A model generated the notes under the pieces. It saw nothing but the letters and a program-made list of their open reading frames with translations. It did not search any database and had not been told where the DNA came from. From Candidatus Bathyarchaeota archaeon (lineage in GTDB: Archaea; Thermoproteota; Bathyarchaeia; Bathyarchaeales; Bathycorpusculaceae): a stretch of DNA of 64,000 bases. The position numbers and the translations under genes are program-made. Below are positions 2,909 to 32,620 of the stretch, in pieces (positions within the stretch are counted from its first letter, which is position 1; each line of letters starts with the position of its first letter). The stretch is taken from contig CAWHDT010000003.1 of assembly GCA_963828195.1 (NCBI GenBank), positions 288,001-352,000 on the forward strand. The letters run 5' to 3'.

Positions 2909-4326
2909 TAGCTATGCAGGAAATTAGAGAGCAGGTTCTCCAGAAAATTACGCCCAGCAAAGAGGACCGCGAAAAAGTTGAGGCTATAACCCGCGAGCTG
3001 GAGAAGAAAGTATCGTTGGCTTGCAAACAAGAAGGCGTTTCCGCAATTGTGCGTGTTGAAGGCTCAGTTGCCAAAGACACTTGGCTTAGGGAAAACCCAG
3101 ACATCGACATTTTCATGCGGCTCCCAACCTCGATTCCGAGAAAAAACCTCGGCGACATCGGTTTAAAAATCGCCAAGAAAGCAGGCGGTGCATACGAGCA
3201 GGTTGAGCGTTTCGCTGAGCACCCTTACCTTGAAGTATTCGTTGAAGGCTACCGAGTGGACATTGTCCCATGTTACGACGCTAAGCCTGGCGAGTGGCAA
3301 AGCGCCACAGATAGAACACCCTATCACACAGACTACATCAAAAAACGCTTGAGCGTGGAGATGCTGGGGGAGGTTCGGCTGCTGAAGAGGTTCATGCAGG
3401 GTACAGGCGTTTATGGGGCTGAAATAAAGGTCGGCGGATTCAGCGGGTACCTCTGTGAACTGCTGATAATGAAGTACCGTTCCTTTGCCCAAACACTGCA
3501 GGCTTTTGCTCTGTACAATAAGCGTGTCGTAATAGACATCGAAAACTTCTATGCTGACAGACAAAACGAGCTTCCCCTGCTTTTCCCAGAATCGTTAGTG
3601 ATTGTTGACCCAGTGGATAGGGGGAGAAACGTTGCTTCAGCCGTGCAGCCTGAGAAGCTTTACGTTTTTGTAGGCGCCGCCAGAGCCTTCCTTGAAAGAC
3701 CCGATGCAGCCTTCTTTTACCCGCCAAAAACTCAAGCGCTGCCTGTTAAAAACTTAAAGAGCCAGCTTGAAAAGCGCGGTTCAGCCACTGTATTTCTGGC
3801 TATAGACCAAGTGAGCGCTGTTCCCGACGTGCTTTGGGGGCAACTATATAGAACAAAACGTTCGCTGCATAAACTATTAGAATTAGCCGATTACAAAGTC
3901 CTGCGGGACACCGTTTGGAGCAACGAAAAAAACCTCAGCATCTTCGTCTTTGAACTTGAAGGGCAATTTTTGCCAAACATCAAAAAACACCTCGGACCGC
4001 CTCTTGAACGAGAAGAAGAAAGCGAGAATTTCCTAGCTAAATACGCTGACAACCCCCAAGTATTAGCTGGACCCTACATCGAGGCTGGACGCTGGATCGT
4101 CGAGGTGCAACGCAAAAACACTGATTCAGTTGCACTTTTACGGGAAAAACTTGCAGGCGGAGGCAAAAACGCAGGCGTACCTGAACTGATTGCTAAATCA
4201 ATTCTTAAAAAACATAAAATTCTGGTTCACGACGAAATTGTCGGGTTGTACGTTGAGAACGACGATTTCGCCGTGTTCTTAACGGATTTTCTTGAGGGGA
4301 AACCGTTTTGGCTAAAAGCCAAATAA
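2905..4326 (+). CDS. cca: Archaeal class I CCA-adding enzyme
   Basis: GSVAKDTWL, DIDIF, AEHPY, DRTPYH, GGFSGYLCELL, DPVD..RNVA motifs. Confidence 0.96.
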   Translation: MIAMQEIREQVLQKITPSKEDREKVEAITRELEKKVSLACKQEGVSAIVRVEGSVAKDTWLRENPDIDIFMRLPTSIPRKNLGDIGLKIAKKAGGAYEQVERFAEHPYLEVFVEGYRVDIVPCYDAKPGEWQSATDRTPYHTDYIKKRLSVEMLGEVRLLKRFMQGTGVYGAEIKVGGFSGYLCELLIMKYRSFAQTLQAFALYNKRVVIDIENFYADRQNELPLLFPESLVIVDPVDRGRNVASAVQPEKLYVFVGAARAFLERPDAAFFYPPKTQALPVKNLKSQLEKRGSATVFLAIDQVSAVPDVLWGQLYRTKRSLHKLLELADYKVLRDTVWSNEKNLSIFVFELEGQFLPNIKKHLGPPLEREEESENFLAKYADNPQVLAGPYIEAGRWIVEVQRKNTDSVALLREKLAGGGKNAGVPELIAKSILKKHKILVHDEIVGLYVENDDFAVFLTDFLEGKPFWLKAK

Positions 4327-28552: not shown

Positions 28553-28825
28553 TTACGTTAAAAAAATGCTTTACCTACATTGAATGCATTAATATTTCCA
28601 TTAAAACCGCACAGAAGAAAAAGAAATCTATAAAATCTATATAGTTGTTGATTTATTTTTTCGCTGTCCTTTAAGGTTTTTCTAGGTTAAATCTGAGCAG
28701 AATATGGGGTGCTAAATTTTAGGGATTTTCTTTCCAAACTTGCGGTGTTAATCGGAACTTTTTCCGAAATCTTAAACAGAATCGTTCCTGACTTAACATT
28801 ACAAATCAGTTCGAGGCATATTAGA

Positions 28826-29854
28826 ATGCGGATGATAAAGTGGTGCGACGGAACGGTCATTACAGTTGACCAGACCAAACTTCCCCTCCAAGAAGTCACT
28901 TTAGAAATCAAAACGGTTGAGCAGATGGCTGAAGCCATAAAAACCCTCCGCGTCAGAGGCGCCCCACTTTTGGGTGCAGCAGCCGCCTTCGGAGTTGCAT
29001 TAGCCGCTTACCACTCAAAAGCGCCGACCAAAGAAAAATTGCTATTTGAACTGGAGAACGCAGGCACGATAATTAAGCATCAGCGACCCACTGCGGTAAA
29101 CCTGTTTTGGGGCGTAGACCGGGTTCTGGATAGGGCACGTGGTTTTTCGGGAAATGTGGGCGAAATGAAAGTTTTGGTGGTTGAGGAGGCGCAGAAAATT
29201 GCGGATGAAGATGCATTGCAGAACCGCGCAATCGGCAAAAACGGCGCCGTGCTCATCGACGACGGCGACACCATTTTGACGCATTGCAACGCTGGCGAGT
29301 TGGCAACAGTCGAGTACGGCACTGCCTTGGGGGTTATCCGCGCCGCTTGGGAAGAGGGCAAAAAAGTCAAAGTTATCGCCGACGAAACTCGCCCGCTGCT
29401 TCAAGGTGCGAGGCTTACGGTTTATGAGCTGAAGCGCGATGGGATACCTGTCACTTTGATAACGGATAACATGGCGGGCTACGTCATGAGCAAGGGGCTT
29501 GTTGACAAGGTCATCGTAGGCGCCGACCGCATCGTCCAAGACGCCGTCGTTAACAAAATCGGCACTTACTCGGTAGCGGTGCTGGCACATGAGCACGGCA
29601 TACCGTTTTATGTTGCAGCGCCAAAATCCACCTTCGACCTGCAGCACAAAGCTTCTGACGTAATTATTGAGGAGCGCAGACCCGAAGAAGTCACCTGCAT
29701 CGGCTCAGTGCAAATTGCTCCTGAAGGCGTCAACGTTATGAACCCTGCCTTCGACATCACGCCGCTCAAATACGTGTCAGCAATCATATGTGAAACCCAA
29801 GTTTACTACAGCAAAGACTTCAGCAAATTCAAGAAAACGGCGTTAAATAAATAA
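28826..29854 (+). CDS. mtnA: S-methyl-5-thioribose-1-phosphate isomerase (eIF-2B family)
   Basis: DQTKLP, VRGAP, RPTAVNL, LTHCNAG, ETRPLLQGARL, GADRI, NKIGTY, NPAFDITP. Confidence 0.93.
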   Translation: MRMIKWCDGTVITVDQTKLPLQEVTLEIKTVEQMAEAIKTLRVRGAPLLGAAAAFGVALAAYHSKAPTKEKLLFELENAGTIIKHQRPTAVNLFWGVDRVLDRARGFSGNVGEMKVLVVEEAQKIADEDALQNRAIGKNGAVLIDDGDTILTHCNAGELATVEYGTALGVIRAAWEEGKKVKVIADETRPLLQGARLTVYELKRDGIPVTLITDNMAGYVMSKGLVDKVIVGADRIVQDAVVNKIGTYSVAVLAHEHGIPFYVAAPKSTFDLQHKASDVIIEERRPEEVTCIGSVQIAPEGVNVMNPAFDITPLKYVSAIICETQVYYSKDFSKFKKTALNK

Positions 29855-29898
29855 AACCAGAAAAACGTCAAAGTCCTCGCGATTCTCTTATTCCCATT

Positions 29899-31143
29899 TT
29901 AGTGTGTTTTGTACCTTAAGAGAGCGGCAAAACCGCTTAAAGCGGTAAGCTTTGCTTTTTCCTGTGACTCTGTAGATATGACTTCAACCAGCCCGTTTGT
30001 TTGCGCAGCCAAATCCTCTAAAACATCCACTATATCCTTCTCCTCCACCGAGTAATCAACGGCTTTGCATCTCTCGCATGGATGCGATATCATTTCTCGA
30101 ACAGCCTGAGCCTTCTCTTTCACATTTACTATGTTCGTCTTTGATAACTCGCATTTCTTGCACATTACAACGATTTCAATCATATCCGTTTTGTCTGTCA
30201 CCAAGGCAACTTCCACTTCGCCTTTTTCAAGTGCGTTCAAAACTGGATCTAACCCGTAAATAGCCAACCCATCAGGCTTGGCAGTTTCCGCCAAAAGACG
30301 CTGCACAACCAGCTTCTCCTCCGGCGCACACATATTGTTGATTGTTTCAGACGATTTAGCAAGCACCTCTCGTACGCCTTCTTTGCCCGCGGATTGGCTA
30401 TCAACTGTGCCTATTAGCGCATTTTTTAGTTCGCAATGGAGGTAATCGCCGCTTAAGAAATCCTCTTTGGTGTGGCCGGGTCCTCCAACTAGCAGCGCCG
30501 TGACTTTGTGGTTCTCAAGAAATTCTTTTGCTGCGTGCTCAGCAATCCTGTGGAAAAAGTATGTAACTTCCATGTCTCGTTCTCGCTCGTATCGTCTTTG
30601 GCTTGACCCGCCTTTTCCAGATTTTCCCGGAATCCCAGATGTAATGTTTTCAAGTAATTCAAGGCGTTCACCATTAAGTATCCCGAAGCTCGCCTCCTTT
30701 GAATCCAACGAGATAAGCCCCACAACATGCTGATTTCTCAGCATTTCCCTCAGCGGATCTAGATGGAAATGATTATCAACGTTGTAGAAGTAGGCGGTAA
30801 TCGGCTCTGGCGGAACAACTTCTTCAACGTGTAAAGCGTCGCTTTCCAACTCGTTCGCAGCGAAAGTTCCAGCAAATAAGGCAAGCCCGTTTCCCGGATT
30901 TTCCTTCTGCAGCTTTAGATGCTGGATCAGATTTTTGAGGCCTTCTTGTAGGCGGTTTTTCTCGCTTTCAGATTTCGCGGCGGCAGAGTCCGATTCACAC
31001 TTGAGAAATGCGGCCAGCTCATCCACTGATTTCTCCCGAGGAATATAGAGCGAGATGAACTCCATTCCCCGTCCCTCCTTATCAGACAGATACGCAATAA
31101 GCTTTCTGAGTTTATGCTGCTTCACTGAATTGCTGGTCGCCAT
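29899..31143 (-). CDS. aRF1/eRF1-family paralog with degenerate stop-recognition motifs
   Basis: Full N-M-C architecture (ISLYIP, PPEPI, GGPG.TK, YG, CxxC...CxxC ribbon, AALLRY); GME, AAKS, YNVDNHF and GGSSQRRY where GTE, NIKS, YxCxxxF and GGQS are expected. Confidence 0.88.
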   Translation of the reverse strand: MATSNSVKQHKLRKLIAYLSDKEGRGMEFISLYIPREKSVDELAAFLKCESDSAAAKSESEKNRLQEGLKNLIQHLKLQKENPGNGLALFAGTFAANELESDALHVEEVVPPEPITAYFYNVDNHFHLDPLREMLRNQHVVGLISLDSKEASFGILNGERLELLENITSGIPGKSGKGGSSQRRYERERDMEVTYFFHRIAEHAAKEFLENHKVTALLVGGPGHTKEDFLSGDYLHCELKNALIGTVDSQSAGKEGVREVLAKSSETINNMCAPEEKLVVQRLLAETAKPDGLAIYGLDPVLNALEKGEVEVALVTDKTDMIEIVVMCKKCELSKTNIVNVKEKAQAVREMISHPCERCKAVDYSVEEKDIVDVLEDLAAQTNGLVEVISTESQEKAKLTALSGFAALLRYKTH

Positions 31144-31282
31144 CTGGCACCCGTGAAAATGCGCTAACTTTTCTGAAACCAAACTCTACACCTAATTATT
31201 AAACTACGTAGATACAAATTTATCAGTTTCTCAGAATTATAGCCAACCCGTATTGGTATCACGATGCGTTGGGACGAGCTGT

Positions 31283-31837
31283 TTACGTTCTTTGCATCAT
31301 TGGAAATTTGTAATTCGTTTTTTTGCCAATAAAGTAGCCAATGAAACCGCCTGTTATCCAAGAAAGAATAAGGGTGATTCCAGCAAAATAATCGGCAGTT
31401 AAGTCTGTCATCCCCCACCTAAACCCGCTTGCATTTGAAATCAACATAATTATAGCCCAAAAAGCAAAACCAAGTAGAGATGCTCCAACAATCACGTAAA
31501 TTTCTTTGCCAAGCTTAACTCCGCTTTTCCCAAACTTCTGTCTGTAGCTGTCTAATTCAAGTTCTGGGAAAGCAATCATTTCATCTAAAACAAAATGACC
31601 CTTATCCGTAAGTGAAAATTGTGAATCTGCTTGTTCAGATATTAAATGCTCTTCATCAATTGTTAATTTTTCAAGAGTGTTTAATTGATATGTAAGCTCT
31701 TGAGCGTCGTCAATCTTTAAATTAGTCATTAAATCGTCAAAAGTTAAATGTCCATGTTCGCCAAGTTGCAGTAATATTTTTTGGCGCAGAGGCTCTTTTA
31801 AAATTTCATGCAACTGAACAAGCTTTTCATCGTTCAT
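31283..31837 (-). CDS. Winged-HTH protein with two C-terminal TM helices
   Basis: LHEILKEPLRQKIL, LTFDDLM, FSLTDKG; hydrophobic C-terminus. Confidence 0.75.
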   Translation of the reverse strand: MNDEKLVQLHEILKEPLRQKILLQLGEHGHLTFDDLMTNLKIDDAQELTYQLNTLEKLTIDEEHLISEQADSQFSLTDKGHFVLDEMIAFPELELDSYRQKFGKSGVKLGKEIYVIVGASLLGFAFWAIIMLISNASGFRWGMTDLTADYFAGITLILSWITGGFIGYFIGKKTNYKFPMMQRT

Positions 31838-32068
31838 GCAATCTGCTTCAATTTATAGCAATATTAGCTTTTCCGAGAAGCTATCTATCATCAATACTGG
31901 TAGCTCGAGTTGAATATTGGTCGAACTCATTTGGTTTTTGGGAGACATGACGCATAAAGCCGAACTCAAAGAGAGCGGAGCAAATCAGAACCCAAGAATT
32001 TGTTTTTGTTTAAGCATAATGTTAAAGAGTTAACAAAACCAAAAGAAGCCTATTACGGTTGATTACTG

Positions 32069-32620
32069 ATGAGCGAGACCAAAAAAACGCAGACTCCCGA
32101 ATTCAGAACCTGCGGCACGTTGGCGAAAAAAGGCGTTGTGGTAGCTGAGCAAAGCAGTATAGACGCGTTGACCTCACGCGGCTACGGCACATTAGAGGAT
32201 AAGGTTTTCACGCTTACATTTTTTGAGGCCCTGTATCTATTGGATAAGGGCATGTTGGAAGTTAAAGGCGAAGAGGGCAAAGCTGCGGATTTCCAAACGC
32301 TACTGCACTGCTACGAAACCCAAAACGAGAACGGGTGGGTCAGCTATCTTGTTTACCGCGACCTGAGAAGCCGCGGCTATGTGGCGCGGGAAGGATTCGG
32401 CGCTGGAATTGACTTTCGCATCTATGAGCGGGGCGCATACGGCAAGGATACGGCGCCTTACTTGGTTTTGAGCACTCAAGAGGGGAAACCGTTGGGTATA
32501 GACGAGTTAGCAGATGCCCTGCAGCAGTGCCAGAGCCAAAAGAAAGAAATGATTTTGGCAGTTATGAACCGCCGAGGCGAAATAGTCTACTACTCAGTCT
32601 CACAGTTAACGTTCAAATAA
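32069..32620 (+). CDS. endA: tRNA splicing endonuclease subunit, probably structural (non-catalytic)
   Basis: LTFFEALYL, YLVYRDLRSRGY, DFRIYERG, IVYY; catalytic Tyr and His positions appear substituted (GFGAG, KDTAPY). Confidence 0.85.
   Translation: MSETKKTQTPEFRTCGTLAKKGVVVAEQSSIDALTSRGYGTLEDKVFTLTFFEALYLLDKGMLEVKGEEGKAADFQTLLHCYETQNENGWVSYLVYRDLRSRGYVAREGFGAGIDFRIYERGAYGKDTAPYLVLSTQEGKPLGIDELADALQQCQSQKKEMILAVMNRRGEIVYYSVSQLTFK

Follow-up and report, generated by a model that had tools for sequence, protein, structure and literature searches.

What can an archaeal release factor do once it has lost the motifs with which stop codons are read? The question is raised by a gene on a 64,000-nucleotide stretch of a Candidatus Bathyarchaeota genome (GenBank assembly GCA_963828195.1, contig CAWHDT010000003.1, positions 288,001 to 352,000 of the forward strand; this whole stretch is called the window below), whose product is labelled 'peptide chain release factor aRF-1' by annotation pipelines. 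An earlier note, made from the letters of the window, had described it as an aRF1 paralogue without any stop-codon recognition motif and as a candidate for codon-independent ribosome rescue. As judged from its sequence and phylogeny, the gene is a horizontally acquired and still mobile accessory gene, referred to below as the xenologue, that resides beside a canonical aRF1; its product is read here, with a little less than even confidence, as a codon-independent A-site factor that is still catalytic. The gene and its parts, in window coordinates, are:

29899..31182, minus strand: coding sequence of the divergent aRF1 xenologue, from the open reading frame (ORF) and its translation (427 residues from TTG 31182; 414 residues, protein P0001, from ATG 31143)
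31189..31231, minus strand: conserved 5' control region with an A/T-rich TATA-like box at about 31216-31231 and the Shine-Dalgarno sequence AGGTG at 31189-31193, a block conserved across 20 loci whose flanks are unrelated
30337..30723, minus strand: M domain (eRF1_2), residues 141-269, with a Pfam score of 117 bits versus 105-118 in canonical aRF1s
29908..30321, minus strand: C domain (eRF1_3), residues 275-412, with a Pfam score of 60.6 bits
30067-30162, minus strand: CxxC...CxxC zinc ribbon in the C domain, with C328, C331, C356 and C359 invariant

The frame of 29899-31143 given in the earlier note holds, and the strings that it singled out, GME, SAAAKS, YNVDNHF and GKGGSSQRRY, are all exact in the 414-residue translation, but the start probably lies further upstream. 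TTG 31182 is preferred to ATG 31143 because AGGTG lies 6 nt upstream of the TTG, because the ATG is replaced by ATA, ACG and GTG in the related loci L010, L022 and L007, and because L016 and L018 have ATG at the upstream start. The block at 31189-31231 is a putative promoter. The three-domain aRF1 with a zinc ribbon described in the same note is borne out by the NCBIfam equivalog model TIGR03676 (aRF1_eRF1; 361.7 bits versus a cut-off of 234.7), by the Pfam models eRF1_1, eRF1_2 and eRF1_3 (40.2, 117 and 60.6 bits, all above cut-off) and by the invariant cysteines. With eRF1_1, the N domain scores 40 bits versus 72-86 bits in canonical aRF1s. Among proteins of solved structure, aRF1 4af1 (E 1e-52) and eRF1 are the best sequence matches, and an AlphaFold2 model built from 60 sequences (mean predicted local distance difference test score, pLDDT, 82.8) has its best fold match in the PDB in 4af1 as well (E 1.7e-36). 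The N domain of the model superposes on that of human eRF1 with a template-modelling (TM) score of 0.84 and a root mean square deviation of 2.3 Å.

Four short elements depart from the classical family:

31060..31068, minus strand: G26-M27-E28 in place of GT(S/E), from the translation
30970..30996, minus strand: E50-S-D-S-A-A-A-K-S58, the equivalent of the NIKS loop, with SAAAKS at residues 53-58, from the alignment
30766..30786, minus strand: Y120-N-V-D-N-H-F126 in place of YxCxxxF, from the translation and the alignment
30598..30612, minus strand: G178-G179-S180-S181-Q182, a catalytic loop of the GGxSQ form (codons ggc ggg tca agc caa), with GKGGSSQRRY at residues 176-185

At the GT(S) site, Thr occupies 98% of 44 canonical rows and Met 71% of 90 xenologue rows, and at the YxCxxxF site Cys is found in 100% of the canonical and Val in 97% of the xenologue rows. 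The NIKS-equivalent loop of the xenologue is one residue shorter than the canonical one, acidic, and variable in its middle. The degenerate motifs are seen across the whole xenologue clade, while NIKS, YxCxxxF and GGQ are kept in 20/20 aligned canonical aRF1s of the same order; therefore, the losses are not due to chance, and the degeneration of the N domain noticed earlier is real and clade-wide, with relaxed constraint only at the NIKS loop. Altogether, 15 positions with a conservation of at least 85% among the 44 canonical rows are replaced in the 90 xenologue rows, among them T27, I56, T61, C122, Y251, G396 and F402; three of the replaced canonical invariants are stop-codon contacts in eRF1. 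The same residue is conserved in both sets at 48 positions, including the four zinc-ribbon cysteines and a C-terminal G-G...A...L-R motif, the GG(F/I)AALLRY region of the xenologue.

The catalytic loop is conserved but for one site. In 150 clade members (proteins with P identifiers together with locus-derived proteins, which may overlap; L021, L022, L026, L029, L036 and L040 are excluded), K177, G178, G179, S181, Q182, R183 and R184 are unchanged, while the position after the GG is S in 63, Q in 59, E in 15, M in 6, W in 5 and A in 2. The loop is 13 residues long, with no gap, between its anchors G-K and R-R-Y in the xenologue and in canonical aRF1 alike. The earlier note had cautioned that a pair of compensating homopolymer indels might have produced GGSSQ. 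Such an artefact is ruled out by the 63/150 members with GGS and by the Logan contigs of runs X2 and X3, from two further studies, which are identical to the window over 30598-30612 with 0 mismatches and 0 gaps (runs X1-X3 are represented by DNA contigs that cover the gene in part; the runs found to contain the sequence include no RNA run). In related loci, the codon at site 180 is TCG/TCA, CAG/CAA, GAG, ATG or GCG, and the frame is unchanged. Since the decoding motifs are lost and the catalytic loop is strictly conserved, the xenologue probably acts on ribosomes without reading the codon.

The Gln of GGQ, absent in the window as the earlier note had stated, was not simply lost. All divergent and apparently basal clade members have GGQSQ, non-Gln states occur only in the subclade of the window, and the Gln at +2 (Q182) counts as a synapomorphy of the clade because GGQSA, with Ala there, is found in the sister type of Nitrososphaerales. 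Basal GGQSQ and sister GGQSA imply an order of events in which transfer and loss of the decoding motifs were followed by gain of the +2 Gln, after which the original Gln became unconstrained. In a survey of aRF1s, 96 of the 149 nearest representatives at 50% identity had a recognisable loop. Ten of these, outside the xenologue clade, lack the GGQ Gln and have W, F, A, M, E or S instead (P0139, P0154, P0155, P0173, P0212, P0230, P0234, P0243, P0246 and P0248); most of them retain NIKS and YxCxxxF. A +2 Gln is present in 7/10 representatives without the GGQ Gln versus 23/86 with GGQ, counts that ignore kinship.

The codons of site 180 (30604-30606) have a further peculiarity. Those of its commonest residues (Q CAG, E GAG, S TCG and W TGG) are each one base away from TAG, and a Q-to-S or Q-to-W change takes two substitutions, via TAG or via Pro or Arg codons. 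A stop at codon 180 was not seen among the copies compared.

The xenologue is a second aRF1, as the earlier note had supposed. The genome of the window (G000; 2.83 Mb, 96% complete) contains a canonical aRF1 at C5:660750-661991 with TASNIKS, YRCDSRF and GGQS, 33% identical to the xenologue, and a separate Pelota (L003 1318-2409). The neighbour of this canonical gene (L002 2843-3934, minus strand) resembles, by eye, formylmethanofuran:tetrahydromethanopterin formyltransferase. Of the 13 xenologue carriers in the order sample, 11 were found to have an intact canonical aRF1 as well. The carrier G126 has two canonical-type copies, L052 (C2:6248-8387) and L072 (C5:531700-533500), both frameshifted, each a few kb from a contig end and 77% and 69% identical, respectively, to the canonical aRF1 of G000 in read-through matches; its xenologue copy is intact. 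The frameshifts in these canonical copies are likely to reflect assembly error or a contig-end repeat.

One alternative is that the xenologue is a functionless passenger, a transferred aRF1 that decays and is kept only briefly in each genome. Pairwise ratios of nonsynonymous to synonymous substitution (dN/dS), calculated by the NG86 method without the broken or partial copies L021, L022, L026, L036, L040 and L041, have a median of 0.21 and lie between 0.11 and 0.44 in 297/297 informative pairs (those with 0.05 < dS < 1.5, out of 378 pairs giving a value). The relaxed selection typical of a decaying duplicate, which the earlier note had named as evidence against its proposal, was thus not seen. 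The values are 2-5 times those of canonical copies, for which a range of 0.03-0.09 was obtained from few unsaturated pairs (3/16 usable). In the per-domain comparison, in which L029 (identical to L013) was also excluded and only 4-45 canonical pairs were usable, since most are saturated, dN/dS was 0.22 for the xenologue and 0.06 for canonical aRF1 in the N domain, 0.16 and 0.14 in the M domain, 0.19 and 0.15 in the C domain, and 0.70 and 0.10 at residues 45-66, the NIKS-equivalent loop. Judging by these ratios, the xenologue is under purifying selection, with the NIKS-equivalent loop near neutrality. Patchy presence and the elevated ratios speak for a passenger, as do the frameshifted or truncated copies at L021, L022, L026 and L040 and an in-frame deletion at L041, among about 37 loci. 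Against it stand the ratios themselves, the invariance of the catalytic loop and zinc ribbon, the conservation of the putative promoter and Shine-Dalgarno sequence, and the depth of a clade whose members, down to 52% identity, have the same architecture; moreover, long-read assembly errors may account for part of the frameshifts, which in G126 affect the canonical copies as well. We consider a functionless passenger improbable.

Another alternative is that the N domain still reads a signal. A codon-directed release factor of altered specificity, recognising a subset of stop codons or a new signal via a remodelled N domain, would agree with the preserved N-domain fold and its overall dN/dS of 0.22, with the retention of E50, K57, Y120 and F126, and with the fact that the new F29, V122 and E-S-D-S are themselves conserved. 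The carrier G112 (94% complete), in which no canonical aRF1 was found, also fits, and there is a precedent in PrfH, a patchily distributed protein for which the reading of atypical signals was the first proposal (PMC1586002). However, the three stop-codon contacts are replaced, the NIKS loop has become shorter, with a nearly neutral middle, and the host shows no sign of recoding: the search of G000 for a pyrrolysine link, at 96% completeness, returned no PylS above cut-off and no PylD, and the motifs of its canonical aRF1 are intact. Altered specificity is likewise improbable in our view.

Where the gene came from was addressed by phylogeny. In a quick Pelota-rooted tree of 86 rows, the 22 xenologue rows are monophyletic (support 100) on a stem of 0.71 and in sister position (96) to three proteins that bear inteins and have canonical motifs, and the 20 aRF1s of the host order form a separate clade (99). 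In a careful tree of 52 rows, the xenologue groups with seven Nitrososphaerales-type proteins (99/97) inside a 100/100 clade that does not include the host order's own aRF1. The stem branch of the xenologue is long (0.69-0.71). In an approximately unbiased (AU) test, the constrained group of which was named after the first tree had already been seen, uniting the xenologue with the host aRF1 was worse by 78.3 log-likelihood units (p 2.8e-5). Origin as a paralogue by local duplication is ruled out by both trees and the AU test, which changes the earlier note's description of the gene as an aRF1 paralogue. Identity of the xenologue is 45-46% with the Nitrososphaerales type, 40% with P0125 and 33% with the host aRF1, in agreement with the trees. 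The organism names of the sister type are Nitrososphaerales (8), Thaumarchaeota (3), Nitrososphaerota (1) and Ca. Gagatemarchaeaceae (1), which are all 13 organism-named matches among the 120 listed. As these trees have it, the xenologue is a descendant of a Nitrososphaerales-type aRF1, acquired horizontally by Bathyarchaeia of soil and peat.

The classical aRF1 of Nitrososphaerales and Ca. Gagatemarchaeaceae, which is presumably the sole terminator of its host, shares the three domains, the zinc ribbon and the loop length with the xenologue. It has TAGNIKS, YMCDDHF and GGQSA, often together with inteins, whereas the xenologue has no decoding motifs and carries the +2 Gln. Thus, the xenologue agrees with classical aRF1 in architecture, TIGR03676 score and tree placement, and departs from it in the stop-codon motifs and GGQ. 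Second aRF1 copies are already known, and by descent and predicted fold this one is a classical aRF1.

Inteins occur in many Nitrososphaeria-type and other archaeal aRF1s (about 540-1450 aa; P0122, P0123, P0124, P0128, P0130, P0132, P0143, P0149 and P0152), exactly at two functional motifs: within GGQ|S (...KGGQ|C...HN|SARRY) and, in YxCxxxF, ahead of the Cys (...YLYx|C...HN|CDDHF); both are present in some of the proteins. Q180 and C122, both lost in the xenologue, adjoin these two insertion points. The coincidence may reflect nothing but the preference of inteins for conserved sites.

The distribution of the xenologue is patchy. Close relatives with 66-79% identity were found at 24 loci in species-representative genomes, labelled as Candidatus Bathyarchaeota or Bathyarchaeia (20), Nitrososphaeria or Nitrososphaerota (3) and an acidobacterium (1). 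The last is a 2.6-kb contig of a metagenome-assembled genome (MAG), and another relative protein is named Zixibacteria; both labels are probably due to misbinning. In an even sample of the order of the window, at least 13 of 151 genomes carry a copy at 53% identity or more, namely 8/36 in family f1, 1/25 in f6, 4/35 in f7 and 0/55 in nine other families, with 6/13 in the genus of the window. In a class-wide sample, 9 of 301 genomes gave a match at E <= 1e-95, all of them in family f1. Two genomes have two copies each, on different contigs and in different subclades (L006 and L010 in one MAG; L032 and L036 in G086), which fits repeated acquisition.

The insertion site in the window includes the following features:

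29836..32068, no strand: 2233-bp segment with the xenologue unit and a 184-residue ORF, missing at the orthologous site of five same-genus genomes, from a DNA search
28709..29854, plus strand: left flank, IF-2B family gene (MtnA/eIF-2B-like; Pfam PF01008, 306 bits)
32069..32620, plus strand: right flank, tRNA-splicing endonuclease (EndA; Pfam PF01974 and PF02778)
31283-31837, minus strand: ORF of 184 residues within the inserted segment, whose N terminus weakly resembles a winged helix (DUF7347, 20 bits, below cut-off) and whose C terminus is hydrophobic

In the empty sites (G027, G052, G064, G068 and G132), homology ends at query position 1136 and restarts at 3370, and the IF-2B-family gene and EndA are adjacent, with an ATGA overlap in G027 (L062), which has its own xenologue copy elsewhere in the genome. 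A contig of a relative from run X1 departs from the window at 29835 with the empty-site sequence. Misbinning of the window contig is ruled out by the synteny of the flanks with these five genomes. The insertion swapped the last codons of the IF-2B-family gene (29836-29854), whose short tail, ...KKTALNK*, comes from the inserted DNA. None of the related loci, including L005 with the same insertion site, has a counterpart of the 184-residue ORF next to the xenologue, and this ORF looks like a second, separate insertion.

The neighbours seen in the window are common to only 3 of 36 related loci, and there is no conserved operon partner: antisense frames of the gene itself aside, no neighbour cluster occurs in more than 6 of the 36. 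In many locus pairs, the DNA is 88-94% identical over about 1.45-1.53 kb and unrelated outside (median total aligned length of 1,297 bp for 612 pairs). Conservation per column, about 0.5 outside, reaches at least 0.85 at some 110-170 bp upstream of the ATG and drops 60-150 bp past the stop, so that the shared unit of about 1.5 kb comprises the TATA-like box, the Shine-Dalgarno sequence, the gene and T-rich 3' sequence, with ends that are ragged between loci. Of 20 flanking ORFs at ten loci, 17 belong to ordinary chromosomal families, including transporters, enolase, aldolase and methyltransferase; the others are a fragment of a DDE transposase and two ORFs without a family. Terminal inverted repeats or a target-site duplication were not seen by eye in the boundary alignments, and no dedicated repeat search was made.

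The divergence of the xenologues is uncoupled from that of their hosts. For G104 and G111 (families f1 and f7), the xenologues differ by a dN of 0.135 and a dS of 0.48, while the canonical copies have a dN of 0.304 with dS saturated; for G000 and G092, in the same genus, dN is 0.369 between the xenologues and 0.125 between the canonical copies. The xenologues of G379, a MAG labelled Nitrososphaeria, and G111, a Bathyarchaeia genome of f7, are separated by a dN of only 0.027 and a dS of 0.12, while the host aRF1s are 51% identical. On this evidence from gene and genome comparison, the xenologue is an accessory gene, horizontally acquired and still mobile.

One could hypothesise that a mobile gene of this kind is conflict-related or selfish cargo: a decoy or backup versus an effector that hits aRF1 or the GGQ Gln, or a terminator akin to abortive infection, with the variable residue 180 recording an arms race. 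The patchy occurrence (at least 13/151 genomes, 6/13 in the genus of the window), the self-contained unit of promoter, gene and terminator in unrelated contexts, its insertion between otherwise adjacent genes, the near-identical copies in hosts with 51%-identical aRF1s and the single radically variable site within an invariant loop are all compatible with this idea. However, PADLOC defence families gave no match, no relative was found on IMG/VR viral contigs in two scans (with a single protein and with an alignment), and there is neither a conserved partner gene nor more than one transposase-like ORF among the 20 flanking ones. Site 180 is also no rate outlier: at least 20 parsimony changes were counted there on the tree, versus a per-site median of 8 and a maximum of 52, and many sites vary more. 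We rate the cargo hypothesis as unlikely, if somewhat less so than a passenger or an altered specificity.

The GGxSQ form of the loop invites comparison with the VLRF-1 families, as described by Burroughs and Aravind 2019 (PMC6514570). GGxSQ is given there as the motif of aVLRF-1 and acVLRF-1, in line with the earlier note, and the VLRF-1 families are predicted to be specialised release factors alongside the main one. The xenologue loop, G178-G179-x-S181-Q182, fits this motif. The xenologue is nevertheless not a member of the VLRF-1 clade. According to the same source, aVLRF-1 has an N-terminal coiled coil and no Pelota-type C domain, acVLRF-1 has no codon-binding domain, and VLRF-1 catalytic loops are longer than classical ones, whereas the xenologue, placed within classical aRF1 in the trees, has all three domains and the loop length of that family. 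The acVLRF1 model PF18859 gives it a score (35.6 bits) below that of three canonical aRF1s (37.4-41.2 bits), and NF041024 gave 30.5 bits versus a cut-off of 125. Since architecture and phylogeny exclude VLRF-1 membership, the GGxSQ likeness is a convergence. PMC6514570 also notes that families with a conserved Gln keep a narrow range of loop lengths and are predicted to be active, while inactive ones lose both; by these criteria, the conserved Gln and fixed loop length make the xenologue look active.

Other aeRF-1 superfamily proteins, Pelota/Dom34 and Balon, are A-site factors independent of the stop codon, and they lead to a further possibility: a non-hydrolytic A-site occupant, which would promote splitting with ABCE1 like Pelota or park and protect idle ribosomes like Balon, a bacterial homologue of aeRF1. 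Several observations are consistent with such an occupant. The canonical Gln is dispensable, given Q, S, E, M, W or A at site 180; stop-codon motifs are absent, as in Balon and Pelota (PMC10901736); a second aRF1 of Methanosarcina barkeri, aRF1-2, is reported as inactive (cited in PMC2943090); the Rv2629/Balon and Pelota models give weak cross-matches; and the fold search includes Balon chains (E 4e-19). However, the loop is invariant but for one site and its Gln is invariant, which is the active pattern by the criteria given in PMC6514570, while Pelota and Balon have no conserved catalytic loop or Gln, Pelota has an Sm-like N domain and Balon motifs of its own (PMC10901736, PMC6514570). The cross-matches are far below cut-off (72.8 bits versus 177.65 for the Pelota model TIGR00111; 29.6 versus 320 for NF052289, Rv2629/Balon), and the N domain superposes on that of eRF1. 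The AlphaFold2 model has TM scores of 0.33-0.36 to Balon and Pelota chains versus 0.59-0.64 to aRF1 and eRF1, and the HP motif, lasso loop and beta-hairpin of Balon are not evident, although no search was aimed at them. The non-hydrolytic occupant is, in our estimate, the likeliest of these alternatives and still rather unlikely.

Second aRF1 copies have a precedent in Methanosarcina. In PMC12626013, two aRF1 copies are given for 4.3% of sampled archaeal genomes and ascribed to duplication with genome expansion, and the second copy of Methanosarcina is ascribed to lineage-specific duplication in a genus that uses pyrrolysine (Pyl). Methanosarcina aRF1-2 is likewise a second archaeal aRF1, but the xenologue is foreign and its host is Pyl-less (the two are compared by description only). 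Orthology between them is unlikely, as the xenologue clade is placed as sister to the aRF1 of Nitrososphaerales. Literature searches, which did not cover supplements, found no description of a Bathyarchaeia aRF1 paralogue, of its foreign origin and mobility, or of GGx variants of aRF1; Table S9 of PMC12626013 comprises 81 genomes with two aRF1 copies and may include these organisms.

Two bacterial proteins also invite comparison. PrfH and ArfB act in ribosome rescue and, like the xenologue, are relatives of class-I release factors with a catalytic loop and without codon recognition. They have the unrelated bacterial release-factor fold, and PrfH has an operon partner, while the xenologue stands alone. 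If the reading of the xenologue as a codon-independent catalytic factor holds, it would work by analogy with ArfB, PrfH or VLRF-1.

Under this codon-independent reading, the protein would go into the A site of the ribosome in the manner of aRF1, probably brought there by aEF1-alpha-GTP, a partnership known for aRF1 and Pelota (PMC3467058). It would ignore the A-site codon, insert the K-G-G-x-S-Q-R-R loop into the peptidyl-transferase centre and hydrolyse the peptidyl-tRNA with the invariant +2 Gln, the GGxSQ solution also used in aVLRF-1 and acVLRF-1. The result would be a one-step release and rescue factor for ribosomes beyond the canonical factor, an archaeal analogue of ArfB or PrfH. Stalled ribosomes and split 50S subunits, named in the earlier note, would be candidate targets.

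Several points weigh against this proposal. The +2 Gln need not be catalytic, as it is also present in the 23/86 representatives that bear GGQ. A codon-blind hydrolase should be toxic if nothing restricts it, and in the xenologue no feature for sensing an empty or damaged A site was identified. The presence of Pelota implies that a rescue route already exists. The absence of a canonical aRF1 from G112, if real, argues for residual termination activity of the xenologue. Besides, M. barkeri aRF1-2, which is the sole second aRF1 of an archaeon to have been assayed, reportedly lacks stop-codon-dependent release activity in vitro and has no assigned function, as cited in PMC2943090 and PMC12626013, and the broken copies listed above must be kept in mind.

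A broader proposal, which we regard as possible at a still lower level of confidence than codon-independent catalysis as such, is that archaea possess, in the xenologue, a horizontally mobile peptidyl-tRNA hydrolase with the aRF1 fold that is encoded by a single gene and works independently of the codon, a functional counterpart of the bacterial ArfB and PrfH. In this proposal, the Gln would have moved from GGQ to GGxSQ recurrently in aRF1 lineages (GGW/F/A/M-SQ, with NIKS kept) and independently in VLRF-1.

The clade provides a natural experiment on the Gln of GGQ, in which six residues are tolerated at the site given a Gln two residues on; if the proposal is true, GGxSQ would be a general alternative form of the active loop, and the universally conserved Gln of GGQ would be replaceable in cis. 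A gene of a core translation factor can act as a mobile accessory gene between lineages with aRF1s of about 50% identity, and the 'aRF-1' label on such a gene can mask the true terminator or inflate aRF1 copy counts. Rescue in archaea is ascribed to Pelota, which is non-hydrolytic, and we know of no archaeal factor that releases the peptide without a stop codon; a codon-blind catalytic aRF1, if confirmed, would fill this gap.

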